From Vicinamibacteria bacterium (GTDB lineage: Bacteria > Acidobacteriota > Vicinamibacteria > Marinacidobacterales > Marinacidobacteraceae), in NCBI GenBank assembly GCA_963422395.1, contig OY729431.1, positions 704,001 through 768,000 on the forward strand: a DNA stretch of 64,000 nt. The letters are read 5' to 3'. A model generated the notes under the pieces. The model was not told the origin of the DNA. It searched no databases and worked only from the letters and a program-made list of their open reading frames with translations. The position numbers and the translations under genes were made by a program. Positions 43,794 to 57,483 of this stretch are shown here, piece by piece; within the stretch, counting starts at the first letter, position 1, and the number at the start of each line of letters is the position of its first letter.

Positions 43794-43934
43794 CCCGTCA
43801 GCGCCGCCCGCTCCGGGAGCGCAGCGCGCGGCGAATGGCTCTTGCGTCGGAAGGGTCTCTTGTCCTACCCTTGTCTGCTACTCGCTGCGTCTTCGGAACC
43901 GGTTTTCCCTAGCCGCTCTCCAGCGTTCAGAACC

Positions 43935-46481
43935 ATGCGCTTTTTCTTGGGCTTCGCTGCTCTAGTGCTCGCTGCAGGCAACCACGCCCAGATCTCTCAC
44001 GCCCGGGCCTTCGAGGCCCGGATCTCCGAAGCCCGGAACCCCGAGGCCCGCTTTTCGCCAGAGAGCCCCGGGCTGTCGGCGGTGCGTGGGTGGTCGTCGG
44101 GGTCGGGGTCGGGGGTGGGGGTTTCAGGAGTTGGGGCTGGGTCGTCGGCGGAGCACAACCGGATGGTTCGGACGTATTGCGTGGTGTGTCACAACGACCG
44201 GATGCGGACGGGGAACATGTCGTTGTCGGGTTTCGATGCGGGGGATGCGTCGTCGAGTCCGGAGTTGTCGGAGAAGGTGGTATCGAAGCTGCGTTTGGGG
44301 ATGATGCCGCCGCCAGGGGCGCGTCGTCCGGCGGAGGAGGTATTGGAGGAGGTTGCGGGGTCTTTGGAGGGTCAGTTGGATCGGAATGCGGAGGAGCATC
44401 CGAATCCGGGGAGGCGTTCGTTTCAGCGTTTGAATCGTGCGGAGTACACGGCGGCGGTTCGGGATTTGCTGGCGTTGCCGGTGGATGCTGCGGAGTATTT
44501 GCCTCAGGACACGATCAGCGCGAACTTCGACAACATCGCGGATGTTCAGTTGTTGTCGGCGACATTGATGGATTCGTATTTGCGTGCGGCGGGCGAGATC
44601 AGTCGGCTGGCGGTGGGCGATCCGAACGCTGTGCCCGCCGAGACGAGCTACTTCGTTTCCCGCTGGTCTTCGCAGCGCCTACAGGTCGAGGGCGCTCCGT
44701 ACGGAACCCGCGGCGGGATCGCGGTGGAGCACACTTTTCCGGCCGACGGACACTATGTGTTCCGGGTTTCGCTGCATCATGAGGTCTGCGGCCCGATCGT
44801 CGGCACCGCTGCCGGAGCGCTGAACTCGGAGCAGGATCCCGAGCAACTCGAAGTCTCGATCGACGGCGAGCGCGTGGCGCTGCTCGCGATCGATCCCTGG
44901 ATGCACACTTCGGACCCGAACGGGGCGACGATGCGGACCGAGCCCATCTTCATCGAAGCCGGGCCGCGCCGGGTGGCCGCTGCCTTCCTGCGCCAGTTCG
45001 ATGGCCCCGTTCAGGACTTGATCTCTCCGCACGACTGGTCGCTGGCGAGCACGAACATCGCGCTCACCTACGGCATCCACAGCCTGCCGCATCTGCGGGA
45101 TGTACTGATTCGCGGTCCGTTCGAGGCGACGGGGGTATCGGAGACGCCGAGTCGGAGTCGGATATTCGGTTGTCGTCCACTGTCGTCGGAGGAGGCGGTT
45201 GGGTGCGCGGAGGAGATCTTGGGACGTTTGGGGCGTTTGGCGTATCGCCGGAGTTTGACGGGGGAGGAGTTGGGAGCGTTGATGGAGCTGTATGCGTCGG
45301 GTTCGGAGAGTGTGGGTTTCGAGGAGGGGATTCGGATGGGGATCGAGGGGATGCTGGCGAGTCCGAACTTCGTATTTCGGATCGAGGAGCCGGTGGATCC
45401 CCGTGAGGCGGCGTTCGGGTATCGGCTGAGCGACACGGACCTGGCGTCTCGTTTGTCGTTTTATCTTTGGGGGACGATACCGGACGAGGAGTTGCTGGAT
45501 TCGGCGGAGTCGGGGCGTTTGTCGGATGCGGAGGAGTATGAGGGTCAGGTGCGTCGGATGCTGTCGGATCCGCGTTCGCTGGCGTTGTCGAAGCGTTTTG
45601 CGAGCCAGTGGTTTCGGTTACAGGATTTGGAGAAGATCAACCCGAACGTGCGTTTGTTTCCGGATTTCCATCAGCAGCTGAAGGAGGCGATGGTGGAGGA
45701 GACGGAGCGTTTTTTCCATCATTTGGTATTGGAGGACCGGAGCGTATTGGAGTTGTTCACGGCGGACTACACATTCGTGAATGAGCGATTGGCGAAGCAC
45801 TACGGGATGACGGGGGTAGCGGGGCCGGAGCACCGTTTGGTGCGGTATGGGGATGCGGGCCGGCGTGGGATATTCGGTCACGGGAGCATTTTGACATTGA
45901 CTTCGCATCCGTATCGGACATCGGCGGTGCTGCGGGGCAAGTGGGTGATGGAGGTATTGCTGGGGAGCCCGCCGCCGCCGCCGCCGCCGAATGTTCCGGA
46001 CCTGGACGCGACGGCGGCGACGGCGGATGGGCGTGAGCTGACGGCGCGGGAGCGTTTGGAGATCCATCGGGACAACCCGGCGTGCCGTTCGTGCCACCGG
46101 ATGATGGACCCGATCGGGTTGGCGCTGGAGCACTACGATGTGACGGGTCGGGAGCGGGTGAAGGACTCGGGGCAGCCGATCGATGCGTCGGGAGAGTTCT
46201 ACGACGGGACGGCGATTCGGGATGTGGGTGATCTGCGGGCGGCGCTGCTGCTGCGGCCGACGCCGCTGCTGCGGACGTTCACGGAGAACCTGATGGCGTA
46301 TGCGTTGGGGAGGCGGGTGGAGTATTACGATCAGCCGCGGGTGCGAGAGATCGTGCGCGAGGCGGCGGAGTCGGACTATCGGATGTCGGCGTTCTTGTTG
46401 GGCGTGGCGCGGAGTCCGGCGTTCCAGAGGAAGGGAGTTTCGGAGCCGTCGCCGGTGGCGACGGAGCTGGGCGAGCCCTGA
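43935..46481 (+). CDS. DUF1592-family multidomain cytochrome c protein (PSCyt/PSD domains), copy 1
   Basis: Signal peptide; CVVCH and CRSCH heme motifs; RLNRAEY, LASRLSFYLW, SPNFVFR, RGKWV, PPPPPP, DPIGLALE. Confidence 0.82.
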   Translation: MRFFLGFAALVLAAGNHAQISHARAFEARISEARNPEARFSPESPGLSAVRGWSSGSGSGVGVSGVGAGSSAEHNRMVRTYCVVCHNDRMRTGNMSLSGFDAGDASSSPELSEKVVSKLRLGMMPPPGARRPAEEVLEEVAGSLEGQLDRNAEEHPNPGRRSFQRLNRAEYTAAVRDLLALPVDAAEYLPQDTISANFDNIADVQLLSATLMDSYLRAAGEISRLAVGDPNAVPAETSYFVSRWSSQRLQVEGAPYGTRGGIAVEHTFPADGHYVFRVSLHHEVCGPIVGTAAGALNSEQDPEQLEVSIDGERVALLAIDPWMHTSDPNGATMRTEPIFIEAGPRRVAAAFLRQFDGPVQDLISPHDWSLASTNIALTYGIHSLPHLRDVLIRGPFEATGVSETPSRSRIFGCRPLSSEEAVGCAEEILGRLGRLAYRRSLTGEELGALMELYASGSESVGFEEGIRMGIEGMLASPNFVFRIEEPVDPREAAFGYRLSDTDLASRLSFYLWGTIPDEELLDSAESGRLSDAEEYEGQVRRMLSDPRSLALSKRFASQWFRLQDLEKINPNVRLFPDFHQQLKEAMVEETERFFHHLVLEDRSVLELFTADYTFVNERLAKHYGMTGVAGPEHRLVRYGDAGRRGIFGHGSILTLTSHPYRTSAVLRGKWVMEVLLGSPPPPPPPNVPDLDATAATADGRELTARERLEIHRDNPACRSCHRMMDPIGLALEHYDVTGRERVKDSGQPIDASGEFYDGTAIRDVGDLRAALLLRPTPLLRTFTENLMAYALGRRVEYYDQPRVREIVREAAESDYRMSAFLLGVARSPAFQRKGVSEPSPVATELGEP
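44072..44631 (+). repeat. G/T-skewed repeat block A, copy 1 (pairs with 50170-50729)
   Basis: Offset 6098; about 3 substitutions seen by eye. Line 44341-44400 has G27 C7 T15 A11 (manual count). Confidence 0.9.
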
Positions 46482-47882
46482 GCTAGGAGAGAGCGATGCA
46501 CTATCTGACAGGGAAGAGAGTTCCGCGGCGGAGTTTTCTGCGGGGAGCGGGTGCGGCGGTGGCGCTGCCGTTTCTGGATGCGATGGTTCCGGCGAGCGTG
46601 ATTGCGAAGCCGGGGGCGTCGGAGCGAACGCGGCTGGTGGCGATCGAGATCGTGCACGGCGCGGCGGGGAGCAACGAGTATGGGCGGGAGCAGAACCTGT
46701 GGTCGCCGGCTGCGGAGGGTGCGGAGTTCGATCTGTCCGAGGGTGCGTTGAGCCCGCTTGCGCCGTATCGGGACCATGTGACGATCGTGAGCGATTGTGA
46801 TGTGGAGCCGGCAGAGGCGGAGACGGCGCGTGAGATCGGAGGGGACCACTTCCGTTCGAGCGCGGCGTTCCTGACGCAGTCGCATCCGAAGCAGACGGAG
46901 GGTTCGGATGTGCACGCGGGGACTTCGCTGGACCAGCTGTATGCGGCGCGCTTCGGCCAGGAGACGCCGATTCCTTCGATGCAGCTGTGCATCGAGACGG
47001 TGGACCAAGCGGGAGGGTGCGCGTACGGGTATGCGTGCGTGTACACGGACACGATCAGCTGGGCGTCGCCGACGCAGCCGCTGCCGATGACGCGGGACCC
47101 GCGGATCGTGTTCGATCAGCTGTTCGGCGCGGGGGGGACGCCGGAGGGCCGAGTGGCGCGTCAGCAGGCGCGCAAGAGCGTGCTGGACTTCATCGGAGAG
47201 GAAGTCCGGCGGCTCCAGGGGGCGCTGGACCCGGAGGATGTGCGGCGGATGGACCGGTATCTGACGGACATCCGTGAGATGGAGCGTCGGATCGAGCGGA
47301 TCGTGGAGCGGAACACGAGCGGAGAGCTGCGTGACCTGCCGGAGGCGCCGTCGGGAGTCCCGGACTCGTTCGACGAGCATGTGAAGATCATGTTCGACCT
47401 GCAGGCGCTGGCGTTCCAGTCGGACATGACGCGGGTGTTCAGCTTCAAGCTGGGACGGGATGCGTCGAGCCGGGTGTATCCGGAGAGCGGAGAAGCGACG
47501 GCGTTCCACCCGGCATCGCACCACGGGAACGACCCGGAGCGGGTGGAGGTTCTGGGACGGATCAATCGGTACCATGTGGGCTTGGTCCCGTATTTCATGG
47601 AGCGGCTCGCGGGGATCGAGGAGGGAGACCGCTCGCTGCTGGACAAGACGATGATCCTGTATGGGTCCCCGATGGGAGACCCGAACATCCACAACCACAA
47701 GCGGGTTCCGTTCTTCGTCGCAGGCGGTGCGAACGGGGCGCTGGAGCATGGCCTGCATTTGCGGGCGGCGGCGGGTACGCCGCTGGCGAACGTGATGCTG
47801 ACGCTGTTGCACGAGCTGGGTCTGGACGACCTCCCGCGCTTCGGAAACAGCACCGGAGAGTTCTCCCTTTCGGCGTGAGCCG
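45113..47882 (+). repeat. G/T-skewed repeat block B, copy 1 (2770 bp; pairs with 51211-53980)
   Basis: Offset 6098; identical translations in several frames on both strands of the ORF track. Line 45241-45300 has G28 C9 T14 A9. Confidence 0.92.
46496..47878 (+). CDS. DUF1552 (HXXSHH) family protein with Tat-like signal, copy 1
   Basis: RRSFLRGAG..VALPFLDAM; HPASHH motif; canonical neighbour of DUF1592 genes. Confidence 0.85.
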   Translation: MHYLTGKRVPRRSFLRGAGAAVALPFLDAMVPASVIAKPGASERTRLVAIEIVHGAAGSNEYGREQNLWSPAAEGAEFDLSEGALSPLAPYRDHVTIVSDCDVEPAEAETAREIGGDHFRSSAAFLTQSHPKQTEGSDVHAGTSLDQLYAARFGQETPIPSMQLCIETVDQAGGCAYGYACVYTDTISWASPTQPLPMTRDPRIVFDQLFGAGGTPEGRVARQQARKSVLDFIGEEVRRLQGALDPEDVRRMDRYLTDIREMERRIERIVERNTSGELRDLPEAPSGVPDSFDEHVKIMFDLQALAFQSDMTRVFSFKLGRDASSRVYPESGEATAFHPASHHGNDPERVEVLGRINRYHVGLVPYFMERLAGIEEGDRSLLDKTMILYGSPMGDPNIHNHKRVPFFVAGGANGALEHGLHLRAAAGTPLANVMLTLLHELGLDDLPRFGNSTGEFSLSA

Positions 47883-48378
47883 GGGGCGCGCCGGGGAGGA
47901 GATCTGGAAAATGGAGATGGAGAGGAACGGAGAGAAGCGGAAGGCGGGGCTGTTGCTGTGCCTCGCGGCGGGGCTCGCGGCGGCGTGCCTATCGCTGGCG
48001 GGGGCCTCGTTCGCGGCGCGGGTGCCGCCGGTTCTGGAGGCGGCGAAGCGTGGAGATGTCGAGGCGCTGCGGTCGGAGCTGCGGTCGGGGGGAGATGTGA
48101 ACACGGCGCAGGGGGACGGTTTCACCGCGCTGCACTGGGCGGCGAAGACGGGGAGCCGCGAGGTGGCGGAGGTGTTGATCGCGGCGGGAGCGGACCTGCG
48201 GGCGACGACGCGGCTGGGAAGCCACATGCCGTTGCATGTGGCGGCGGCAGCGGGGCAGCCGGGGGTTGCGGAAGCGCTGCTCGAGGCCGGCGCTCCGGTC
48301 GCTGCAACCACCGGAACCGGCGCTCGGCCCATCCACTTCGCCGCCGCCTCCGGGAACCCCTCCCTGATCGAAGTGCTC
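47870..48378 (+). repeat. Repeat block C: ankyrin gene 5' part, copy 1 (pairs with 56975-57483)
   Basis: Offset 9105; near-identical from about 47995; G-skewed until about 48280. Confidence 0.85.
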
Positions 48379-49977
48379 GCGGGGAAGGGCGCTGACCTGA
48401 ATGTGGTCGAACCGCAGTGGGGGCAGACCCCGCTCATGTTCGCCGCCGCCACCGGCCGCGCCGCGGCGGTCGAGGCGCTGCTGGTTCGAGGGGCGGATCC
48501 CTCCGCGACGGCCTCGGTCCTCGATGTGGCGGCGCGGGCAGAAGCCGACCTGCTGGCCCGCCGGGCCCGTCAGGCGCGGGTAGATCGCGAGCGGGGCGGG
48601 GCCGGCGTGATCTACGACCCTCGGGAACGGGACAAGCAGCGCAAGGAAGCGCAGCGGCGGGCGAAGGCGGCCGCTGCCGCCAAGGCGGAGCGCGAGAAAG
48701 GGCGCACCGAAGAAACGCCCGCAGCCTCCGGTTCCGGAAAGAGCGGCTCTGCGGATCTCGCCGACCTGAAGCTGGAGGGAAAGAAGCCAGCGGAGGACGG
48801 GGAGGGCGCAGCCGATGCGGAAGCGTCCGAAGCCGAAAAGGACGAACACGCGGAGGCTCACGGCCACCCCGAAGACGAACTCGTCCGGGAAGAAGAGAAG
48901 ACCCGGAAAGAAGACGAGCAGAAGGCCGCCGCCCGGAAGGGTGGTGACTCCGGGAAGGAAAACCGGCAGCCGCTGCGGTATGCCGAACTCGTGGGCACCC
49001 ACGGCGGTCTGACGGCGCTGCTGCTCGCTGCCCGCGACGGCCATCTCGAAGCGGCGGCGGCTCTGCTGGACGGAGGCGCCGCTGTCGATCAGCGAGCTGA
49101 AGGACACCGGACGACCCCGCTTCTGATGGCCGCCATCAACGGCCACTACGACCTCGGCATGGAGCTGCTCGCCCGCGGTGCCGACCCGAACCTCAGGAAC
49201 ATCTCCGGTGCCGCTCCGCTCTATGCAGCCATCAACGCCCGCTGGATTTCCCAACCCTTCCACCCGCAGCCGGCAGACCACCTGCAGCAGCAGAACTCGC
49301 ATGTCGAGTTCATGGAAGCGCTGATCGAGGCCGGCGCCGATATCGATGCTCGGCTCGAGCGGAAGCAGTGGTACAGCACCTACAACACCGACCAGCTCGG
49401 AGTGAACCGGGCCGGGGCGACCGCCTTCTGGCGCGCTGCGTACGCGCTGGACATTCCGGCGATGGAACTGCTCGTTGCGCACGGTGCGGACCCTTCGATT
49501 CCCACCATGAAGGTCCCCGAACGGACGCTGCGCCGGCTGACGGACCTGGTCTCCGAAGATCCGGAGGAGGATCCTTCGGGGCTGCCCGAGGTGCCCTACG
49601 GAGGGCCTGGCGTCTATCCGATCCACGCTGCCGCCGGGGTGGGCTACGGGCTGGGTCTCGCGGCGAACTCGCATCGCCACGCTCCCGACGCCTGGCTGCC
49701 GGCGGTGCAGTACCTGGTGGAGGAACACGGCGCCGATCCGGACGCCCGAGACCACAATGGATACAGCGTCATCCACCACGCCGCTTCGCGCGGGGACAAC
49801 GAGATGATCGAGTATCTGATCGGGAAGGGCGCCGATCCGTTGGCGGTCGCCCGGACCGGCCAGACGACGATCGATCTCGCGAACGGTCCGGTGCAGCGGA
49901 TCAGCCCCTTCCCGGAAACCATCGCGCTACTCGAAGGTTACGGCGCCAAGAACAACAACCGCTGCGTCGGGTGCTGA
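47875..49977 (+). CDS. Secreted ankyrin-repeat protein with C-terminal CxxC, copy 1
   Basis: Multiple G-x-T-(A/P)-L-H/M repeats; signal-like helix; ends NNNRCVGC. True start may be an ATG near 47911. Confidence 0.82.
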   Translation: MSRGRAGEEIWKMEMERNGEKRKAGLLLCLAAGLAAACLSLAGASFAARVPPVLEAAKRGDVEALRSELRSGGDVNTAQGDGFTALHWAAKTGSREVAEVLIAAGADLRATTRLGSHMPLHVAAAAGQPGVAEALLEAGAPVAATTGTGARPIHFAAASGNPSLIEVLAGKGADLNVVEPQWGQTPLMFAAATGRAAAVEALLVRGADPSATASVLDVAARAEADLLARRARQARVDRERGGAGVIYDPRERDKQRKEAQRRAKAAAAAKAEREKGRTEETPAASGSGKSGSADLADLKLEGKKPAEDGEGAADAEASEAEKDEHAEAHGHPEDELVREEEKTRKEDEQKAAARKGGDSGKENRQPLRYAELVGTHGGLTALLLAARDGHLEAAAALLDGGAAVDQRAEGHRTTPLLMAAINGHYDLGMELLARGADPNLRNISGAAPLYAAINARWISQPFHPQPADHLQQQNSHVEFMEALIEAGADIDARLERKQWYSTYNTDQLGVNRAGATAFWRAAYALDIPAMELLVAHGADPSIPTMKVPERTLRRLTDLVSEDPEEDPSGLPEVPYGGPGVYPIHAAAGVGYGLGLAANSHRHAPDAWLPAVQYLVEEHGADPDARDHNGYSVIHHAASRGDNEMIEYLIGKGADPLAVARTGQTTIDLANGPVQRISPFPETIALLEGYGAKNNNRCVGC

Positions 49978-49984
49978 CAAGAGG

Positions 49985-52579
49985 ATGCGGCGTTTGACTT
50001 TCGATGGCGAGGCGAGGGTCGGCCGCGTTCCCTTTGCGATTTCCGTTTTCCTGATTTCCCTGCTGCCGATTGCCGCCGGGGCCTCTTCGGCTGCGGCAGC
50101 ACCGTCTCTCCCACCGTCCTCGCCGCAGGCGTCAGCGGTCGAAGGATCGCCGCCGCTTTCCGCTTCTGCGCTGTCGGCGGTGCGTGGGTGGTCGTCGGGG
50201 TCGGGGTCGGGGGTGGGGGTTTCAGGAGTTGGGGCTGGGTCGTCGGCGGAGCACAACCGGATGGTTCGGATGTATTGCGTGGTGTGTCACAACGACCGGA
50301 TGCGGACGGGGAACATGTCGTTGTCGGGTTTCGATGCGGGGGATGCGTCGTCGAGTCCGGAGTTGTCGGAGAAGGTGGTGTCGAAGCTGCGTTTGGGGAT
50401 GATGCCGCCGCCAGGGGCGCGTCGTCCGGCGGAGGAGGTATTGGAGGAGGTTGCGGGGTCTTTGGAGGGTCAGTTGGATCGGAATGCGGAGGAGCATCCG
50501 AATCCGGGGAGGCGTTCGTTTCAGCGTTTGAATCGTGCGGAGTACACGGCGGCGGTTCGGGATTTGCTGGCGTTGCCGGTGGATGCTGCGGAGTATTTGC
50601 CTCAGGACACGATCAGCGCGAACTTCGACAACATCGCGGATGTTCAGTTGTTGTCGGCGACATTGATGGATTCGTATTTGCGTGCGGCGGGCGAGATCAG
50701 TCGGCTGGCCGTGGGCGATCCGAACGCTGCGCCCGCCGAGACCGGCTACCATGTGTCGCGTTGGGCGTCCCAGCTGGACCAGGTCGAGGGCGCTCCGTAC
50801 GGAACCCGCGGCGGGATCGCGGTGGAGCATGTCTTTCCCGCTGACGGTGCATACCGATTCCGAGTGGCGTTCCACCATGAGACGACCGGCGCGATCGTGG
50901 GTTCGGGATCGAGTTCGCTCCATACCCTGGACGCTCCGGAACGAGTGGAGATCTCGATCGACGGCGAGCGGGTGGCGCTGCTCACGGTCGACCGCTGGAT
51001 GCATGTCTCCGATCCCGACGGGGTCAACTTGCGGACCGAGCCCATCTTCGTCCGCGGGGGGCCGCGCCGGGTTGCTGCTGCCTTCCTGAAACATTACGAG
51101 GGTCCGGTCCTCGACTTGATCTCTCCGCACGACTGGTCGCTGGCGAGCACCGCGACCTCGAGGACCTACGGCATCCACAATGTCCCCCACCTGCGGGATT
51201 TCTTCATCACCGGTCCGTTCGAGGCGACGGGGGTATCGGAGACGCCGAGTCGGAGTCGGATATTCGGTTGTCGTCCACTGTCGTCGGAGGAGGCGGTTGG
51301 GTGCGCGGAGGAGATCTTGGGACGTTTGGGGCGTTTGGCGTATCGCCGGAGTTTGACGGGGGAGGAGTTGGGAGCGTTGATGGAGCTGTATGCGTCGGGT
51401 TCGGAGAGTGTGGGTTTCGAGGAGGGGATTCGGATGGGGATCGAGGGGATGCTGGCGAGTCCGAACTTCGTATTTCGGATCGAGGAGCCGGTGGATCCCC
51501 GTGAGGCGGCGTTCGGGTATCGGCTGAGCGACACGGACCTGGCGTCTCGTTTGTCGTTTTATCTTTGGGGGACGATACCGGACGAGGAGTTGCTGGATTC
51601 GGCGGAGTCGGGGCGTTTGTCGGATGCGGAGGAGTATGAGGGTCAGGTGCGTCGGATGCTGTCGGATCCGCGTTCGCTGGCGTTGTCGAAGCGTTTTGCG
51701 AGCCAGTGGTTTCGGTTACAGGATTTGGAGAAGATCAACCCGAACGTGCGTTTGTTTCCGGATTTCCATCAGCAGCTGAAGGAGGCGATGGTGGAGGAGA
51801 CGGAGCGTTTTTTCCATCATTTGGTATTGGAGGACCGGAGCGTATTGGAGTTGTTCACGGCGGACTACACATTCGTGAATGAGCGATTGGCGAAGCACTA
51901 CGGGATGACGGGGGTAGCGGGGCCGGAGCACCGTTTGGTGCGGTATGGGGATGCGGGCCGGCGTGGGATATTCGGTCACGGGAGCATTTTGACATTGACT
52001 TCGCATCCGTATCGGACATCGGCGGTGCTGCGGGGCAAGTGGGTGATGGAGGTATTGCTGGGGAGCCCGCCGCCGCCGCCGCCGCCGAATGTTCCGGACC
52101 TGGACGCGACGGCGGCGACGGCGGATGGGCGTGAGCTGACGGCGCGGGAGCGTTTGGAGATCCATCGGGACAACCCGGCGTGCCGTTCGTGCCACCGGAT
52201 GATGGACCCGATCGGGTTGGCGCTGGAGCACTACGATGTGACGGGTCGGGAGCGGGTGAAGGACTCGGGGCAGCCGATCGATGCGTCGGGAGAGTTCTAC
52301 GACGGGACGGCGATTCGGGATGTGGGTGATCTGCGGGCGGCGCTGCTGCTGCGGCCGACGCCGCTGCTGCGGACGTTCACGGAGAACCTGATGGCGTATG
52401 CGTTGGGGAGGCGGGTGGAGTATTACGATCAGCCGCGGGTGCGAGAGATCGTGCGCGAGGCGGCGGAGTCGGACTATCGGATGTCGGCGTTCTTGTTGGG
52501 CGTGGCGCGGAGTCCGGCGTTCCAGAGGAAGGGAGTTTCGGAGCCGTCGCCGGTGGCGACGGAGCTGGGCGAGCCCTGA
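49985..52579 (+). CDS. DUF1592-family cytochrome c protein, copy 2
   Basis: Same architecture as copy 1, with a different signal peptide and central domain; GAGG RBS. Confidence 0.82.
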   Translation: MRRLTFDGEARVGRVPFAISVFLISLLPIAAGASSAAAAPSLPPSSPQASAVEGSPPLSASALSAVRGWSSGSGSGVGVSGVGAGSSAEHNRMVRMYCVVCHNDRMRTGNMSLSGFDAGDASSSPELSEKVVSKLRLGMMPPPGARRPAEEVLEEVAGSLEGQLDRNAEEHPNPGRRSFQRLNRAEYTAAVRDLLALPVDAAEYLPQDTISANFDNIADVQLLSATLMDSYLRAAGEISRLAVGDPNAAPAETGYHVSRWASQLDQVEGAPYGTRGGIAVEHVFPADGAYRFRVAFHHETTGAIVGSGSSSLHTLDAPERVEISIDGERVALLTVDRWMHVSDPDGVNLRTEPIFVRGGPRRVAAAFLKHYEGPVLDLISPHDWSLASTATSRTYGIHNVPHLRDFFITGPFEATGVSETPSRSRIFGCRPLSSEEAVGCAEEILGRLGRLAYRRSLTGEELGALMELYASGSESVGFEEGIRMGIEGMLASPNFVFRIEEPVDPREAAFGYRLSDTDLASRLSFYLWGTIPDEELLDSAESGRLSDAEEYEGQVRRMLSDPRSLALSKRFASQWFRLQDLEKINPNVRLFPDFHQQLKEAMVEETERFFHHLVLEDRSVLELFTADYTFVNERLAKHYGMTGVAGPEHRLVRYGDAGRRGIFGHGSILTLTSHPYRTSAVLRGKWVMEVLLGSPPPPPPPNVPDLDATAATADGRELTARERLEIHRDNPACRSCHRMMDPIGLALEHYDVTGRERVKDSGQPIDASGEFYDGTAIRDVGDLRAALLLRPTPLLRTFTENLMAYALGRRVEYYDQPRVREIVREAAESDYRMSAFLLGVARSPAFQRKGVSEPSPVATELGEP
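50170..50729 (+). repeat. G/T-skewed repeat block A, copy 2
   Basis: Matches 44072-44631. Confidence 0.9.
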
Positions 52580-53980
52580 GCTAGGAGAGAGCGATGCACT
52601 ATCTGACAGGGAAGAGAGTTCCGCGGCGGAGTTTTCTGCGGGGAGCGGGTGCGGCGGTGGCGCTGCCGTTTCTGGATGCGATGGTTCCGGCGAGCGTGAT
52701 TGCGAAGCCGGGGGCGTCGGAGCGAACGCGGCTGGTGGCGATCGAGATCGTGCACGGCGCGGCGGGGAGCAACGAGTATGGGCGGGAGCAGAACCTGTGG
52801 TCGCCGGCTGCGGAGGGTGCGGAGTTCGATCTGTCCGAGGGTGCGTTGAGCCCGCTTGCGCCGTATCGGGACCATGTGACGATCGTGAGCGATTGTGATG
52901 TGGAGCCGGCAGAGGCGGAGACGGCGCGTGAGATCGGAGGGGACCACTTCCGTTCGAGCGCGGCGTTCCTGACGCAGTCGCATCCGAAGCAGACGGAGGG
53001 TTCGGATGTGCACGCGGGGACTTCGCTGGACCAGCTGTATGCGGCGCGCTTCGGCCAGGAGACGCCGATTCCTTCGATGCAGCTGTGCATCGAGACGGTG
53101 GACCAAGCGGGAGGGTGCGCGTACGGGTATGCGTGCGTGTACACGGACACGATCAGCTGGGCGTCGCCGACGCAGCCGCTGCCGATGACGCGGGACCCGC
53201 GGATCGTGTTCGATCAGCTGTTCGGCGCGGGGGGGACGCCGGAGGGCCGAGTGGCGCGTCAGCAGGCGCGCAAGAGCGTGCTGGACTTCATCGGAGAGGA
53301 AGTCCGGCGGCTCCAGGGGGCGCTGGACCCGGAGGATGTGCGGCGGATGGACCGGTATCTGACGGACATCCGTGAGATGGAGCGTCGGATCGAGCGGATC
53401 GTGGAGCGGAACACGAGCGGAGAGCTGCGTGACCTGCCGGAGGCGCCGTCGGGAGTCCCGGACTCGTTCGACGAGCATGTGAAGATCATGTTCGACCTGC
53501 AGGCGCTGGCGTTCCAGTCGGACATGACGCGGGTGTTCAGCTTCAAGCTGGGACGGGATGCGTCGAGCCGGGTGTATCCGGAGAGCGGAGAAGCGACGGC
53601 GTTCCACCCGGCATCGCACCACGGGAACGACCCGGAGCGGGTGGAGGTTCTGGGACGGATCAATCGGTACCATGTGGGCTTGGTCCCGTATTTCATGGAG
53701 CGGCTCGCGGGGATCGAGGAGGGAGACCGCTCGCTGCTGGACAAGACGATGATCCTGTATGGGTCCCCGATGGGAGACCCGAACATCCACAACCACAAGC
53801 GGGTTCCGTTCTTCGTCGCAGGCGGTGCGAACGGGGCGCTGGAGCATGGCCTGCATTTGCGGGCGGCGGCGGGTACGCCGCTGGCGAACGTGATGCTGAC
53901 GCTGTTGCACGAGCTGGGTCTGGACGACCTCCCGCGCTTCGGAAACAGCACCGGAGAGTTCTCCCTTTCGGCGTGAGCCG
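51211..53980 (+). repeat. G/T-skewed repeat block B, copy 2
   Basis: Matches 45113-47882. Confidence 0.92.
52594..53976 (+). CDS. DUF1552 family protein, copy 2 (identical protein to copy 1)
   Basis: 460-aa translation identical to 46496..47878. Confidence 0.85.
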   Translation: MHYLTGKRVPRRSFLRGAGAAVALPFLDAMVPASVIAKPGASERTRLVAIEIVHGAAGSNEYGREQNLWSPAAEGAEFDLSEGALSPLAPYRDHVTIVSDCDVEPAEAETAREIGGDHFRSSAAFLTQSHPKQTEGSDVHAGTSLDQLYAARFGQETPIPSMQLCIETVDQAGGCAYGYACVYTDTISWASPTQPLPMTRDPRIVFDQLFGAGGTPEGRVARQQARKSVLDFIGEEVRRLQGALDPEDVRRMDRYLTDIREMERRIERIVERNTSGELRDLPEAPSGVPDSFDEHVKIMFDLQALAFQSDMTRVFSFKLGRDASSRVYPESGEATAFHPASHHGNDPERVEVLGRINRYHVGLVPYFMERLAGIEEGDRSLLDKTMILYGSPMGDPNIHNHKRVPFFVAGGANGALEHGLHLRAAAGTPLANVMLTLLHELGLDDLPRFGNSTGEFSLSA

Positions 53981-54042
53981 AAGACCTGGAAAGGGCGTTT
54001 CGCGCTAGTTCACTGTTTTTCTGGAAGATGAGGATTCCTTTC
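53981..54042 (+). promoter_or_regulatory. AT-rich leader, probable promoter/RBS of the TonB-dependent receptor
   Basis: Local AT enrichment (ctagttcactgtttttctgg) in a high-GC background, and AGGA before the ATG at 54043. No consensus promoter resolved. Confidence 0.3.
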
Positions 54043-56916
54043 ATGTACAAAGTGTTTATGCACAAAATTCCCATGTTGGTCTTGCCAACGCTACTCATGG
54101 CGGTTTCCGCGCCTGCCCAGCAGACCGGGACGGTCACGGGGACGGCGTCGGATGAGCAGGGTGCGGTATTGCCTGGGGTGGCGGTGACGGTGGACAGCGA
54201 TGCGTTGATAGCGCCGCGCAGCACGACGACCGGGTCTGGGGGTTCTTACAGCCACCCGGCGCTTCCGCCGGGTGAGTATCGGGTGACCTTCGCGCTGTCG
54301 GGTTTCCAGACGGTGATTCAGGAGGGGGTCCGGGTGAGCGTGGCGCGGACGCTGGAGGTGAACGCGACGATGGGACTTTCCGGGGTGGAGGAGACGGTGA
54401 CGGTGACGGGGGACGCCCCGGTGGTGGATGTGCGCAGCGCGACGATCCAGACGAACATCGAGCGGGAGTTGCTGGAGGCGGTACCCACGGGACGGAATCC
54501 ATGGGTGATGGCGGGGCTGGTTCCGGGGATGGTGACGACCCGGATCGATGTCGGTGGGAGCAACGGGATGCAGCAGTACGGCATGGAGATTTTCGGATCG
54601 TCGGCGACGATGCAGAGTTTTCAGGTGGACGGTCTGAAGGTGAACTGGCCTGGGGGGACCGGGGGTTGGACGATGCAGTACTACGGATTTTCGATGTATG
54701 AGGAGTTCAACTTCCAGACCTCGACGCACACTGCGGAGTCGGACACCGGCGGGGTTTTGATGAACATGGTGGTGAAGTCTGGGGGGAACGAGTTCAGCGG
54801 CGACGCGATCGGGCTGTACAACGCGACGGACCTGCAGGGGGAGCCGGCGGAGGCGGGGGGTGCGCCGATCACGCGATCTTTGGACCTGAACGGGACCCTC
54901 GGGGGCCCGATCGTGCGGGACCGGGCGTGGTTTTTCACTGCCTATCGGCACTGGGTGCACGATCAGGAGGTGACGGTTCCGGCGGACTATGTGGGAGCGA
55001 CGCCGGTGGACGACAATCGGATTCGCAATCTTTCGGGGAAGTTGACTTGGCAGGCGAGCGACAACGATCGCCTTTTCGTGACGCTGCAGCGGAACTGGAA
55101 GCAGCGTTTCCACCGGCGCGACAGTCCGTATACGGCGGTTCCGGACGATCTCGCCCGGTTCCAGGACCAGTGGGCCGACAACGCCATCCTGTCCTACAAC
55201 CGGGTGCTGGGCGATGCGGCGCTGCTGGATCTCCGCTTCGGGAGGATGTGGGGAACCACTCCGTACATTCTGTATTCCGAGTATTGCGGGGTTCCGGTGG
55301 ACGAGTATCCGGACGCCCGCCCCTGTACCGAGAACGACATATCGGTCATCGACCCGGTGCGTGCGGAGCAGTTCAACGCGGATCGGCGTGGGGAGTATTG
55401 GAACCCGAACTACCGCAACCAGTTCAACGGCTCGCTGACCTACTACCTGGACACGGCATCTGGTTCGCACAACTTCAAGGTCGGTGCGCAGGCGTCGCGA
55501 GAGGGGATGGACACCCGGACCTTCAAGAGCGGTGATGCGTATGGGGAGCTGAGCGACGGGGTTCCGAGCCGGATCAACATTTCGAGGACTCCGAACTTCA
55601 AGATGGAGAGGTTGAACACCTGGGGGGCGTTCATCCAGGATGCCTGGACGATCGGGGACCGGCTGACGCTGAACCTCGGGGTGCGGCTCGACGGGATCTA
55701 TGGTTATGTTCCGGAGCAGAGCAGTCCGGCGGGGACTTGGACTGCGCTTTCGGACCAGCTCGCCGGGGACATTTTTTCGGTGAACAGCGAGATCACGGGG
55801 TTGCCGGACTGGCCGCTGAACATCGGCCCGCGGCTGAGCTTCGCCTACGACCTTTTCGGCGACGGCCGCGCGGCGCTGAAGGGTGGCTGGGGCCGTTACT
55901 ACACGCAGATGGGGAGCGCGCTGCCAGCGAGCGCGAACCCGAACGGGGGGTCTTCCGCCTGGGTGGGTTGGAACGATCTCGACGGGGACAAGCTGGTGGA
56001 CATCGGGCCCTCGGGGACCCTGGCGGACAGCCCCGAGGTGGACCTGAGCAAGTTCGAGGGATTCACGGGGGGGGCGACCACGGTGTACGACCGTGACGCG
56101 AACCGGCCGTACAGCGACGACATATCGCTGGGAGTGGACATGACGATGGGGTCGGATGTGTCGATCAGCGCGACGTACCATCGGCGCCAACACCGGGATT
56201 CGCTGGGGGTTCTGAACCGGGCTCGCCCGCCGTCCGGCTACGAGCAGAGCAGTTTTTCCTGTTCCAACTGTCCGGAATCTTCCTATACGGTCTATGAGCT
56301 GAAGGATGAGTATCGCGGTCTCCAGGACAATGTGATCACGAGTATCGACAAGCTGCAGAGCAACTACAACGGGGTTGCGGTGCAGATCCAGAAGCGTTTT
56401 TCGAACCGCTGGCAGCTGCTGGGGGGGGCGACCTTTTCGAGCCACCGTGGGGTACCGCACGCGTTGCCGTGGGACAACACCGACTGGAACAACCCGAACC
56501 GGGAGATCAACCGGCTGGACGGAGCGGTGCTGACGGATGTGCCGTGGGTATTCAATGTAGCGGGGAGCTACCTGGCTCCGTACGACATCCAGGTCGGCTG
56601 GAACTATCGTGCGAGGGCGGGGAACCCGCTGGTATCGACGGCGCGGGCGACGGGGCTGGTTCAGGGTTCGGAGTCGATCTACGCCTACGAGCGTGGCGAC
56701 GAACGGACCGAGACGATCACGGATTTGCTGGACATCAACCTCCGCAAGGGTTTCGATCTCGAGGGGGTGCGGGTCGAGTTCGGCGCGGACATGGCGAACA
56801 TTTTCAACTCGCAGAAGGCGGACGCCTTGATCACGGGCTTCGGCTCGCGCTATCTGCAGCCGTCCCGCGTGCTGCCCCCGCGAATCTTCCGCTTCACCGC
56901 GAAACTGCTCTTCTGA
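54028..56916 (+). CDS. TonB-dependent receptor with N-terminal carboxypeptidase-regulatory-like domain
   Basis: GTVTG..D..GAVLPGV, ETVTVTG, KSGGNEFSG, FIQDAW..GDRLTLNLGVR, PRLSFAYD, terminal Phe. Start may be 54043 or 54058. Confidence 0.88.
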   Translation: MRIPFMYKVFMHKIPMLVLPTLLMAVSAPAQQTGTVTGTASDEQGAVLPGVAVTVDSDALIAPRSTTTGSGGSYSHPALPPGEYRVTFALSGFQTVIQEGVRVSVARTLEVNATMGLSGVEETVTVTGDAPVVDVRSATIQTNIERELLEAVPTGRNPWVMAGLVPGMVTTRIDVGGSNGMQQYGMEIFGSSATMQSFQVDGLKVNWPGGTGGWTMQYYGFSMYEEFNFQTSTHTAESDTGGVLMNMVVKSGGNEFSGDAIGLYNATDLQGEPAEAGGAPITRSLDLNGTLGGPIVRDRAWFFTAYRHWVHDQEVTVPADYVGATPVDDNRIRNLSGKLTWQASDNDRLFVTLQRNWKQRFHRRDSPYTAVPDDLARFQDQWADNAILSYNRVLGDAALLDLRFGRMWGTTPYILYSEYCGVPVDEYPDARPCTENDISVIDPVRAEQFNADRRGEYWNPNYRNQFNGSLTYYLDTASGSHNFKVGAQASREGMDTRTFKSGDAYGELSDGVPSRINISRTPNFKMERLNTWGAFIQDAWTIGDRLTLNLGVRLDGIYGYVPEQSSPAGTWTALSDQLAGDIFSVNSEITGLPDWPLNIGPRLSFAYDLFGDGRAALKGGWGRYYTQMGSALPASANPNGGSSAWVGWNDLDGDKLVDIGPSGTLADSPEVDLSKFEGFTGGATTVYDRDANRPYSDDISLGVDMTMGSDVSISATYHRRQHRDSLGVLNRARPPSGYEQSSFSCSNCPESSYTVYELKDEYRGLQDNVITSIDKLQSNYNGVAVQIQKRFSNRWQLLGGATFSSHRGVPHALPWDNTDWNNPNREINRLDGAVLTDVPWVFNVAGSYLAPYDIQVGWNYRARAGNPLVSTARATGLVQGSESIYAYERGDERTETITDLLDINLRKGFDLEGVRVEFGADMANIFNSQKADALITGFGSRYLQPSRVLPPRIFRFTAKLLF

Positions 56917-56974
56917 TGTTCTCGGGAGCGCGTCTTTGAGTTTCGACTGCTGCGCGGGAGCGCTGTTCTCGCTG

Positions 56975-57483
56975 TCGGCGTGAGCCGGGGGCGCGCCGGG
57001 GAGGAGACCTGGAAAATGGAGATGGAGAGGAACGGAGAGAGGCGTAGGGCGGGACTGTTGCTGGTTTTCGCGGCAGGGCTTGCGGCGGCGTGCCTATCGT
57101 TGGCGGGGGCCTCGTTCGCGGCGCGGGTGCCGCCGGTTCTGGAGGCGGCGAAGCGTGGAGATGTCGAGGCGCTGCGGTCGGAGCTGCGGTCGGGGGGAGA
57201 TGTGAACACGGCGCAGGGGGACGGTTTCACCGCGCTGCACTGGGCGGCGAAGACGGGGAGCCGCGAGGTGGCGGAGGTGTTGATCGCGGCGGGAGCGGAC
57301 CTTCGGGCGACGACGCGGCTGGGAAGCCACATGCCGTTGCATGTGGCGGCGGCAGCGGGGCAGCCGGGGGTTGCGGAAGCGCTGCTCGAGGCCGGCGCTC
57401 CGGTCGCTGCAGCCACCGGAACCGGCGCTCGGCCCATCCACTTCGCCGCCGCCTCCGGGAACCCCTCCCTGATTGAAGTGCTG
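56975..57483 (+). repeat. Repeat block C, copy 2
   Basis: Matches 47870-48378. Confidence 0.85.

Follow-up and report, generated by a model that had tools for sequence, protein, structure and literature searches.

Gene conversion and a strand-asymmetric synonymous skew in two old paralogous units of a Vicinamibacteria genome: a GRINS-type locus

Why should sequence identity and nucleotide skew switch on and off together inside single genes? This question is raised by a locus in the genome of a Vicinamibacteria bacterium, at which two units of PSCyt/PSD, DUF1552 and ankyrin-repeat genes share blocks that are rich in G and poor in C on the coding strand (Table 1). The window analysed is a stretch of 64,000 nucleotides (contig OY729431.1, positions 704,001–768,000), and all coordinates refer to it unless stated otherwise.

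Table 1. Features of the locus (tracts are called converted or unconverted according to the interpretation favoured in the text)
Feature	Position	Strand	Product	Evidence or remark
PSCyt/PSD protein gene, unit a	43842..46481	+	879 aa	ORF list; Pfam DUF1587, DUF1595, DUF1592, DUF1588, DUF1585
Block A copy 1, converted G-skewed tract	44072..44631	+		98–100 % identical to 50170–50729
Unconverted island, unit a	44632..45112	+		between DUF1587 and DUF1595 domains; 57–78 % identical to 50730–51210
Block B copy 1, converted tract	45113..47882	+		matches 51211–53980
DUF1552 (HXXSHH) gene, unit a	46496..47878	+	460 aa	Pfam PF07586, E 4e-82
Block C copy 1, 5' part of ankyrin gene a	47860..48446	+		93.4 % identical to 56965–57551
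Ankyrin-repeat gene, unit a	47875..49977	+	700 aa	Pfam Ank families
PSCyt/PSD protein gene, unit b	49985..52579	+	864 aa	Pfam; GC3 skew 0.47
Block A copy 2	50170..50729	+		self-BLAST, identity windows, skew
Unconverted island, unit b	50730..51210	+		identity windows, skew, tree
Block B copy 2	51211..53980	+		self-BLAST, identity windows, skew
DUF1552 gene, unit b	52594..53976	+	460 aa	Pfam
Barrel gene: CarboxypepD_reg and outer-membrane beta-barrel (TonB-dependent-receptor-like)	54028..56916	+		Pfam
Block C copy 2	56965..57551	+		self-BLAST, skew
Ankyrin-repeat gene, unit b	56980..58854	+	624 aa	ORF list; Pfam

Self-BLAST of positions 40000–62000 returned three matches: 44072–47882 versus 50170–53980 (96.65 % identity, 3822 columns), 47860–48446 versus 56965–57551 (93.39 %, 590 columns) and 48990–49977 versus 57876–58854 (75.7 %, 999 columns). 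Resolved into 60-nt windows, identity between the copies is 98–100 % at 44107–44586, falls to 57–78 % at 44647–45126 and is 100 % in every window of 45127–47826. A first-pass annotation had described three paired blocks as (near-)identical, which is correct for A and B, while C is only about 93 % identical and runs on for about 70 bp past the end assigned to it. Its claim that one tract crosses gene boundaries applies to block B, the first copy of which spans the 3' part of the PSCyt/PSD gene, a 14-bp spacer, the whole DUF1552 gene and the start of the ankyrin gene; the DUF1552 proteins of both units are identical. Beyond block C, the ankyrin genes of the two units share 75.7 % identity and their skew is about 0. 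Two scanned ORFs upstream of the locus had no Pfam match.

In 150-nt windows (30-nt step), mean GC skew was 0.356 and 0.362 in the two copies of block A, 0.269 in block B and 0.285 and 0.296 in the two copies of block C, compared with −0.02 and +0.03 in the diverged islands (mean absolute 0.044 and 0.067); 300-nt windows across the genome had a mean of 0.001 (sd 0.083). Skew and identity both change at the block edges, within single ORFs. The coupling previously seen by eye is thus recovered by computation, and the underlying manual counts (G27/C7, G28/C9 and G19/C24) were exact on recount. Third codon positions carry the skew, in keeping with the proposed synonymous recoding: GC3 skew amounts to 0.70 for A, 0.64 for the PSCyt/PSD part of B, 0.41 for DUF1552 and 0.40 for C, as against −0.06 and −0.08 in the islands. 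Four genes at the locus reach values of 0.41–0.47 (0.43 for the PSCyt/PSD gene of unit a), i.e., above the 99th percentile (0.23) of 1244 crude ORFs with a mean of −0.10. Among codons, the ratios in converted tracts versus island are 99:0 versus 15:8 for GCG:GCC, 39:1 versus 5:12 for ACG:ACC and 61:1 versus 12:10 for CCG:CCC, and TTG occurs 44 versus 3 times; of the codon shifts claimed initially, those to GCG and TTG are evident, that to GAT is weak (GAT:GAC 29:36 versus 6:13). GC3 content is 0.75–0.84 in the tracts and 0.81–0.82 in the islands.

Tracts of this kind were described in 2021 as GRINS without known mechanism (Nivina et al. 2021, PMC8256042), and the sections of that paper used here define them by duplication over >500 bp at >80 % DNA identity within the genome together with mean absolute GC and TA skews each >0.15, the two skews being correlated at r = 0.70. 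Blocks A (560 bp, 98–100 %), B (2770 bp, 100 %) and C (587 bp, 93.4 %) all exceed the limits for length, identity and GC skew. Mean absolute TA skew exceeds 0.15 in A (0.196/0.208) and not in B (0.108) or C (0.111/0.120), so that A alone counts as GRINS under the formal rule, B and C lying below the genome background of 0.146–0.149; with this background, the TA threshold lies at noise level in this 68 % GC genome. GC–TA skew correlations are 0.29/0.43 in A, 0.54 in B, −0.04/0.14 in C and −0.18 in the background. The locus further shares with GRINS, as far as they are characterized in those sections, an intense third-position skew that starts and stops abruptly inside ORFs, a greater similarity of copies within the genome than between homologous loci, a link to gene conversion, skews of both signs in one genome and transposases as frequent carriers. 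It is a GRINS-type case, and one that homogenises its copies. It differs in its carriers (PSCyt/PSD, DUF1552, ankyrin and barrel genes), in belonging to the Acidobacteriota, a phylum outside the five covered in PMC8256042, and in that two whole paralogous units are homogenised over family-level time rather than modules diversified. The initial statement that GRINS occur mainly in PKS genes understates the same sections, which report them in 53–90 % of genomes from five phyla and most often in transposases; an occurrence outside PKS is for this reason not new in itself. The literature found to use the term GRINS is all on PKS or NRPS.

The age of the duplication was assessed in 14 Vicinamibacteria genomes from 5 genera. 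The gene order PSCyt/PSD–DUF1552–ankyrin–PSCyt/PSD–DUF1552–(insert)–ankyrin–MBL is conserved in 14/14, and the island tree contains two deep clades (SH-aLRT 100 each), each with one copy per genome. Judged from these sequence comparisons, the duplication is shown to predate the divergence of the family. Island copies pair by genome in none of the 14 genomes, whereas the DUF1552 copies are sisters by genome in 9 and the PSCyt/PSD 3' tract pairs by genome in 5. Orthologues across genomes share 84–89 % protein identity, with both copies of a genome scoring equally, and DNA path lengths to the nearest relatives amount to 0.22–0.31 substitutions per site as compared with 100 % identity within the genome. 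A pre-divergence duplication is hence combined with mosaic clustering by genome or by paralogue type, as defines concerted evolution. Since the duplication is older than the family and yet the tracts pair by genome, their identity is attributed with high confidence to gene conversion, as the first-pass annotation had supposed. An old duplication, paralogues more alike within genomes than orthologues and recurrent conversion also characterize the long-lasting concerted evolution treated in a 2018 Commun Biol paper (PMC6053082, considered in part); what the present locus contributes beyond this is a compositional footprint seen in the converted tracts alone, together with mosaic boundaries conserved across genera. 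A term search of that paper gave no hit for "skew" or "GC content".

Skew follows the converted extent, which varies by genus. Conversion covers A, B and DUF1552 in G000, G008 and G003, part of B and DUF1552 in g5, and only DUF1552 in g6, where the PSCyt/PSD copies are unskewed; in g2, both conversion and skew are scant. In the 9 non-g2 genomes, windows with ≥95 % identity between copies have mean GC3 skews of 0.26–0.56 and those with <90 % identity of −0.27 to 0.00. Over 420 windows of 40 codons (14 genomes × 30), identity and GC3 skew are correlated with a Spearman rho of 0.72, although such window statistics overstate significance because the genomes are kin. The independent evolutionary events are few, about four. 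Among orthologues in relatives, the skewed codon usage is limited to those whose own copies undergo homogenisation, so the first-pass annotation's refuting condition of equally skewed single-copy orthologues does not hold. A causal link between skew and conversion activity appears quite likely.

The same columns of the alignment provide a direct comparison: third positions contain G 0.63 and C 0.21 where converted versus G 0.40 and C 0.49 in unconverted g6. At four-fold sites, converted windows (n = 2756) have G 0.79, C 0.08, T 0.11 and A 0.03, as opposed to C 0.47 and G 0.46 in unconverted windows (n = 4854); the DUF1552 gene of unit a alone has G 0.76 and C 0.08. Two-fold pyrimidine sites mostly retain C (0.77 converted, 0.83 unconverted), and G at two-fold purine sites is 0.97 versus 0.84. 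The skew is shown to be derived and synonymous. The gain of G from C at four-fold sites with C retained at two-fold sites argues against models of deamination or transitions only and directs the search towards strand-asymmetric transversion or mismatch-repair biases. The tautomer model in the consulted sections of PMC8256042 yields transitions and does not predict C-to-G changes. Parsimony-polarised synonymous changes comprise 75 G>C versus 12 C>G among those fixed in both copies and 18 G>C versus 1 C>G among differences between copies; read literally, the tracts would currently be losing G, but the count is judged to be distorted by the distance of the outgroups and the skew in composition, and neither supports nor excludes an ongoing drive.

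As a whole, the observations are likely best explained by old paralogous units, recurrent conversion and synonymous sites driven to G within the converted tracts. Two tandem units, each with a PSCyt/PSD, a DUF1552 and an ankyrin gene, go back to a duplication before the family diverged, and recurrent intrachromosomal gene conversion has since homogenised tracts A, B and, less recently, C, which may represent an older or decaying converted tract. The island of ~480 bp, the N-terminal regions and the greater part of the ankyrin genes escape and remain diverged. In recurrently converted tracts, synonymous sites have been pushed to G on the coding strand, chiefly from C at four-fold and from A at two-fold purine sites, with a smaller rise in T. 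We infer a strand-asymmetric bias in recombinational repair or fixation (biased gene conversion or recombination-linked mutagenesis), which would accumulate only under long recurrent conversion and fade once conversion ends. Chances are about even that such a bias, and not a pre-existing skew, stands at the beginning. Any specific molecular route is improbable when taken singly; candidates are C–C mismatches in heteroduplex DNA that escape MutS and C-to-G mutagenesis of a single-stranded recombination intermediate.

Some known processes resemble this scheme in part. GC-biased gene conversion has no preference between G and C and increases GC content. A fixation bias during conversion could likewise shift composition where conversion recurs, but a symmetric gain of G and C is not seen here, GC3 being unchanged or lower; since the shift is G versus C on one strand, a strand-asymmetric process is needed. 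Fungal repeat-induced point mutation introduces C-to-T changes and drives copies apart. Like strand-coordinated mutation clusters, it is a compositional change affecting one strand and aimed at duplicated DNA or single-stranded recombination intermediates; at the present locus, however, identity between the copies persists and C-to-T plays a minor part, two-fold pyrimidine sites mostly retaining C.

The order of events is addressed by the barrel gene, which is inserted between the DUF1552 and ankyrin genes of unit b in this genome only and is missing there in 13 relatives. Positions 54115–56916 are a 97.3 % copy of genome positions 289326–292127. Over the first 360 codons, GC3 skew is +0.31 to +0.50 in the gene at the locus and +0.30 to +0.61 in the two copies taken together; in orthologues (17 rows, 15 relatives) it is at most +0.19 in any window and none is skewed. 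In this gene, two-copy in one genome only, skew is shown to arise with the two-copy state. According to a model proposed in the discussion of Nivina et al. 2021 (PMC8256042, part of the text), a tract may instead become skewed for an unrelated cause, its low complexity or G-richness then raising recombination, with identity as the consequence. The correlation of identity and skew has no direction and would suit this order as well, and so would the strong skew at just 69–95 % identity in block C and the first 180 barrel codons, the barrel skew peaking in the first three windows, where the copies are least alike; skew can therefore outlast identity. The unskewed barrel orthologues nevertheless argue against a skew that came first, as do the unconverted PSCyt/PSD genes of g6, among which there is no skewed copy, and the blocks show no enrichment of canonical G-quadruplex motifs, A having one and the other two lacking any. 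Moreover, skewed single-copy DNA is nearly absent: repeats make up 2.58 % of the genome, and 25 of the 29 regions with a 600-bp |skew| >0.25 lie inside repeats (at least 500 bp in this count), 3 of the other 4 being shorter repeats or arrays. Conversion or duplication is conversely possible without skew. In the sister family, G036 has six dispersed DUF1552 copies 99.1–99.7 % identical to a seventh (skew 0.02–0.04) and G034 a 3261-bp tandem pair of 99.97 % identity (skew 0.04); skew thus requires more than identity. Among the 14 genomes, windows of high identity without skew occur in G003 (97 % identity, skew −0.18), in PSCyt/PSD of G013 (100 %, +0.05) and in DUF1552 of G018 (99 %, −0.08; 100 %, +0.13). 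Skew as the initial event is accordingly regarded as rather unlikely.

Genome-wide, |skew| >0.3 was found in 20.4 % of repeat windows versus 0.5 % of non-repeat windows, and the strongly skewed repeats are mostly IS elements. The coding strands of IS481 and of a tandem-repeat ORF are rich in C (four-fold C 0.67–0.69), so the sign of the skew varies. Only 18 of the 29 skewed regions have their G-rich strand as the leading one, and 6 of these 18 belong to this locus. Because strong skew elsewhere in the genome sits in repeats such as IS elements, the coupling fits a general repeat-associated process rather than a locus-specific device. The first-pass annotation had seen here a candidate diversification system, i.e., dedicated machinery recoding and diversifying envelope genes. 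The products would be of envelope or secreted type, and ankyrin and receptor genes could plausibly be targets of diversifying selection, but nothing points to such a system: diversity between the paralogues is lowest in the tracts, the differences being kept by the diverged island, what can be seen is two paralogous units made alike, and IS elements and other repeats show the same coupling. Such a system is very unlikely.

Still slightly less probable is an origin of the skewed stretches from a donor with other codon usage that recombined into both copies. The lower GC content of the tracts (0.58–0.68 versus about 0.70) and the IS elements sharing the signature would agree with it. The skewed tracts are, however, orthologous across genomes and group as the unconverted island does, G000 clustering with G008 and G003 in one island clade as well as in the trees of DUF1552 and of the PSCyt/PSD 3' tract; every genome would have to be hit twice at identical boundaries, the four-fold composition is far beyond the ORF distribution of this genome, and no such donor came to notice among 80 related loci.

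Tentatively, persistently homogenised multi-copy DNA might be pushed to G (and T) on one strand by a strand-asymmetric bias of recombinational repair throughout the family, although this extension is doubtful. Were it to hold, GRINS would not be genetic elements but a trace left by biased gene conversion, and the locus, whose conversion tracts vary in extent and age over at least 14 genomes, would constitute a natural time series for measuring the strength and spectrum of the bias. The locus is a clean GRINS case in ordinary genes of another phylum, and has advantages over PKS cases in that its two copies are old and contain their own unconverted segment as a control, in having related genomes in which other tracts are converted or conversion has ended, and in including a gene duplicated in one genome only. 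In practical terms, such tracts distort gene trees, predictions of horizontal transfer based on codon usage, and short-read assemblies.

An assembly or polishing collapse, or very recent duplication of units with expression-selected codon bias, has a very low probability: a 36-kb terminal overlap (98.5–99.4 % identity) implies that the assembly is not fully curated and read-level support consists of short-read contigs only, but the same architecture and identical tracts recur in 9 separate assemblies, the island tree and synteny rule out a recent duplication, and selection for expression cannot produce an on/off pattern inside one gene. Public short-read contigs from 3 studies terminate where the blocks do and have about double depth. 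Contigs of 560 bp and 2770 bp correspond exactly to 50170–50729 and 51211–53980, each at about 2x the depth of unique flanks; this hints at two exact copies and is not a measurement of copy number. Block B forms one contig in run X1, which belongs to a different study; the contig has ~2x flank depth and 24 differences from this genome, which suggests that both copies carry the same strain differences.

The locus comprises two tandem paralogous units (a and b), each consisting of a PSCyt/PSD, a DUF1552 and an ankyrin-repeat gene. For the five locus proteins tried, NCBIfam yields no name above its cut-offs. The genome, G000, is represented by a single 2.908-Mb contig (68.4 % GC), with the window at 704001-768000.

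Genes of the two-unit locus (window coordinates)
Gene	Unit	Position	Strand	Domains
PSCyt/PSD-type protein	a	43842-46481	+	DUF1587, DUF1595, DUF1592, DUF1588, DUF1585
DUF1552	a	46496-47878	+	
Ankyrin-repeat	a	47875-49977	+	
Second PSCyt/PSD	b	49985-52579	+	
Second DUF1552	b	52594-53976	+	
CarboxypepD_reg/beta-barrel outer-membrane		54028-56916	+	
Second ankyrin	b	56980-58854	+	
Metallo-beta-lactamase-fold (MBL), following the second ankyrin gene			+	

Self-alignment of the window pairs 44072-47882 with 50170-53980 (96.65 % identity), 47860-48446 with 56965-57551 (93.4 %) and 48990-49977 with 57876-58854 (75.7 %). Windows of 60 nt divide the first pair into three parts: (i) 44107-44586 with 98-100 % identity, (ii) a diverged stretch, here termed island, with only 57-78 % (44647-45126), and (iii) a 2.7-kb stretch, 45127-47826, with 100 % in each window. 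Thus, the first-pass annotation had placed block A (44072-44631/50170-50729) and block B (45113-47882/51211-53980) exactly, while its block C, also described as (near-)identical, is indeed a repeat, but of only ~93 % identity. Contigs from public runs provide a hint at strain level: in run X1, from another study, block B forms one contig with 24 differences to G000 and about twice the depth of its flanks. In some runs, parts of unit a are hardly covered or not covered at all, as the identical contigs were assigned to unit b. In one public contig (run X6), window position 44282 is joined to 50381, i.e., 6098 bp corresponding to one unit are skipped; this junction may stem from an assembly-graph path across block A or from a population variant with one unit only.

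Mean GC skew (150-nt windows) amounts to +0.36 (block A), +0.27 (block B) and +0.29 (block C), and is about zero in the islands, the remaining parts of the ankyrin genes and the flanks; the three manual G and C counts of the first-pass annotation were reproduced on recount. The skew is located at third codon positions, with GC3 skews of 0.70 in block A, 0.64 in the PSCyt/PSD part of B and 0.41 in DUF1552, versus -0.06 and -0.08 in the two islands. Across 1244 crudely predicted ORFs of G000, GC3 skew averages -0.10 (sd 0.10; 99th percentile 0.23). Values for the two PSCyt/PSD and two DUF1552 genes lie between 0.41 and 0.47; the only other ORFs reaching this range encode transposases, are unannotated (a few) or contain tandem repeats (one). 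For base usage, sites from nine genomes were pooled into converted (at least 98 % identity between copies; 4992 codons) and unconverted classes (below 90 %; 8238 codons).

Base usage at synonymous sites in converted and unconverted codons
Sites	Converted	Unconverted
Four-fold	G 0.79, C 0.08, T 0.11, A 0.03	C 0.47, G 0.46, T 0.05, A 0.02
Two-fold pyrimidine, C share	0.77	0.83
Two-fold purine, G share	0.97	0.84

Accordingly, the dominant change is a C-to-G transversion wherever G is synonymous, as opposed to an overall replacement of C by T. In G000 alone, the codon ratios are 99:0 for GCG:GCC, 39:1 for ACG:ACC and 61:1 for CCG:CCC; Tyr and Asp codons ending in T are also more frequent.

Searching 40 relatives for DUF1552 showed that almost all genomes of the family (f1) carry two top matches of nearly equal score, separated by a few kb. 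A match is present in 23 of 24 family genomes, G006 being the one family relative searched that yielded none; the tally of 34 of 41 from this search includes genome G033. Synteny, window and tree analyses covered 14 of 24 family relatives, with loci taken from the 13 relatives with long contigs; fragmented assemblies, most of them of genus g2, were left out (G001, G002, G009, G011, G016, G017, G019, G020, G023 and G024, with the gene truncated at contig ends in G017 and G023). All 13 relatives share the gene order PSCyt/PSD, DUF1552, ankyrin, PSCyt/PSD, DUF1552, ankyrin, MBL, varied by insertions in some and a rearrangement in one. Compared with these 13, only the window's genome carries the barrel gene between the second DUF1552 and the second ankyrin gene.

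Three trees were calculated from codon alignments of 28 copies (two from each of 14 genomes). The island tree resolves two clades (SH-aLRT 100 each), in both of which every one of the 14 genomes is represented by a single copy, so that the duplication is older than the split of the five genera compared. The DUF1552 copies are sister by genome in 9 of 14 cases, with the a and b copies of genus g2 (five genomes) falling into separate clades, and the 3' tract of the PSCyt/PSD gene in 5 of 14. Since the tracts differ by 0.22-0.31 substitutions per site between genomes and are identical inside one genome, conversion recurred after speciation. The two old paralogous units have thus undergone recurrent gene conversion.

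In G000, G008 and G003, the first-unit island clusters with those of the second unit in the other 11 genomes, and the second-unit island with those of the first; the islands or the PSCyt/PSD genes have exchanged places in this clade, with the order of the ankyrin genes unchanged. In G010, the units are located 1.3 Mb apart on opposite replichores (384000-396000 and 1692000-1704000), each in the direction of replication. Despite this distance, the two DUF1552 genes have retained 95-100 % identity, and their GC3 skews amount to 0.23-0.56.

The extent of conversion differs between genera, including blocks A and B plus DUF1552 in G000, G008 and G003, parts of B plus DUF1552 in G004 and G012, and DUF1552 only in G013, G015, G005 and G010; in genus g2, the copies are 77-100 % identical with little skew. 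In the nine non-g2 genomes, mean GC3 skew is 0.26-0.56 at 95 % or higher identity between copies versus -0.27 to 0.00 below 90 %. Considering the same alignment columns, third positions contain G 0.63 and C 0.21 in converted genomes, versus G 0.40 and C 0.49 in unconverted ones. The synonymous recoding to G is confined to converted tracts and derived. Identity between copies correlates with GC3 skew (Spearman 0.72; 420 windows of 40 codons each), although p-values overstate the case, since the genomes are kin and represent only about four independent changes; the boundary pattern is a stronger argument than the window statistics.

Several cases argue against a simple rule according to which identity makes skew. 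Some windows of the family are identical between copies yet lack skew. In a sister family (f3), G036 harbours at least seven dispersed DUF1552 copies of 99.1-99.7 % identity with skews of 0.02-0.04, and G034 a 3261-bp tandem pair (99.97 % identity) with a skew of 0.04. In addition to identity, skew therefore requires a long period, repeated cycles of conversion or some factor specific to the lineage. The 9.2-Mb genome of G036 contains 34 DUF1552 matches altogether, at least 15 of which score almost equally and share one 520-aa open frame; the seven sampled copies are alike over 1.7-2.2 kb.

The barrel gene represents a second, independent case within the window. Its segment 54115-56916 is a 97.3 % copy of genome positions 289326-292127, whereas the orthologue in the relatives examined is single-copy or accompanied by an old neighbour of 63-83 % identity. 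The comparison included 19 of 30 loci, leaving out 10 from fragmented assemblies and one distant paralogue. According to the first-pass annotation, skewed codon usage in single-copy orthologues would speak against its reading; for the barrel gene such usage is absent from all 17 orthologue rows (15 relatives), where GC3 skew is at most +0.19 in all 60-codon windows and mostly negative. Within the first 360 codons, both copies in G000 display +0.30 to +0.61, with raised values elsewhere too, indicating that the skew arose along with the two-copy state. On either side of the inserted segment (53981-56964), there is an imperfect direct repeat of 23 bp (53958-53980 and 56965-56987) composed of the final DUF1552 bases plus 4 bp; hence, a remnant of the DUF1552 3' end persists upstream of the second ankyrin gene. 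The two barrel copies are unrelated upstream and in the signal peptide (window 54028-54115; genome 289229-289341) and alike from the ...CCCAGCAGACCGGGA stretch (at about window position 54115) through the stop codon, i.e., they share the mature-protein part only.

Throughout G000, repeats of at least 500 bp and 80 % identity account for 2.58 % of the genome. An absolute GC skew above 0.3 was found in 20.4 % of repeat windows versus 0.5 % of non-repeat windows, and 25 of 29 regions with a 600-bp absolute skew above 0.25 lie inside such repeats. Of the remaining four, three correspond to repeats of lesser length or to a short tandem array; the fourth (C1:1555701-1556300, skew +0.28), the sole such region without a repeat match in self-alignment, may represent skewed single-copy DNA. 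Insertion sequences make up the other skewed families (IS481, and DDE_Tnp_1 with or without DUF772). Three IS families show the G-rich four-fold signature (G 0.61-0.81), and IS481 together with a tandem-repeat ORF of 405-bp period its mirror image (four-fold C 0.67-0.69). The latter array (C1:516138-523306; period ~405 bp, copies ~90 % identical) is part of a 2487-aa minus-strand ORF and has a four-fold C of 0.69 and a TA skew of ~0.5 on the plus strand. A second tandem pair of non-IS paralogues, with LVIVD/Big_2 domains (C1:618383-622561), is 94.8 % identical over 2 kb. Its GC skew is -0.17 for the whole stretch and reaches -0.26 to -0.27 in two sub-regions of 900 bp; the G-rich strand is the coding strand.

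The locus is filed as a case of the GRINS type (repeats of intense nucleotide skews; Nivina et al. 2021, PMC8256042), with which it agrees in the length and identity of the repeats, in GC skew and its concentration at third codon positions, and in the similarity of copies within the genome. The GRINS threshold for TA skew is passed by block A only; in this GC-rich genome, that threshold falls at background level. According to PMC8256042, transposases are the commonest GRINS carriers outside Streptomyces, in agreement with the skewed IS elements of G000; phylum and gene families of the present locus are not described in the main text of that paper. In the literature searched, five papers, each dealing with PKS or NRPS, use the phrase "repeats of intense nucleotide skews", and a 2018 survey of long-lasting prokaryotic concerted evolution (PMC6053082) makes no mention of skew. 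The first-pass designation as a candidate diversification system finds no support, the tracts being the homogenised parts of the genes and the phenomenon genome-wide. The value of the locus rather is that of a natural comparative system for the GRINS mechanism.

As for the source of the skew, a strand-asymmetric bias linked to recombination is inferred. One candidate route would be biased correction of heteroduplex DNA: E. coli MutS shows only very weak recognition of C-C mismatches, and mismatch repair leaves them uncorrected (PMC5416779). With the C-C mismatch escaping repair, a C/G difference would convert one way only, set by the strand transferred. This route predicts the dominant class of changes, but not the rise of T. 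Alternatively, cytosine mutagenesis on a single-stranded recombination intermediate could lead to a C-to-G outcome. The large excess of C-to-G over C-to-T argues against plain cytosine deamination and also against the transition-based tautomer model presented in PMC8256042. MutS_V was found in 41 of 41 genomes searched (including G033), so that its mere presence cannot explain the difference between skewed and unskewed genomes. G033, flagged as unpublished, enters only this tally and the DUF1552 tally of 34 of 41.

In a McDonald-Kreitman-like contrast aimed at telling a mutation bias from a fixation bias, 82 polarised within-genome differences (36 more being unpolarised) were compared with 314 changes that both copies share as fixed. 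The predominant direction is away from G in either class, although parsimony over-counts G>X here due to a G share of ~0.8 at four-fold sites and distant outgroups; no difference was seen between the classes (Fisher p = 0.46 for C>G versus G>C; p = 0.66 for to-G versus from-G), and the contrast favours neither bias. Among the 29 skewed regions of G000, the sign of the skew has no consistent relation to replication direction, the G-rich strand being the leading one in 18 and not in 11. The locus itself is co-oriented with replication in all genomes checkable (G000, G015, G005, G010 and G013), rendering effects of replication and transcription inseparable here. G-quadruplexes were rejected as driver: blocks B and C lack canonical motifs and block A contains a single one, compared with a genome density of 0.128 per kb.

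Two minor features of the G000 contig were also observed. A dispersed repeat of ~160-200 bp, present in dozens of copies in both orientations with 76-97 % identity (e.g., C1:107981-108179 and C1:134921-135115), looks like a MITE or REP-like element. Furthermore, the contig ends overlap by ~36 kb (1-35903 and 2872301-2908270; 98.5-99.4 % identity), which looks like an untrimmed circular overlap, possibly across two strain variants.
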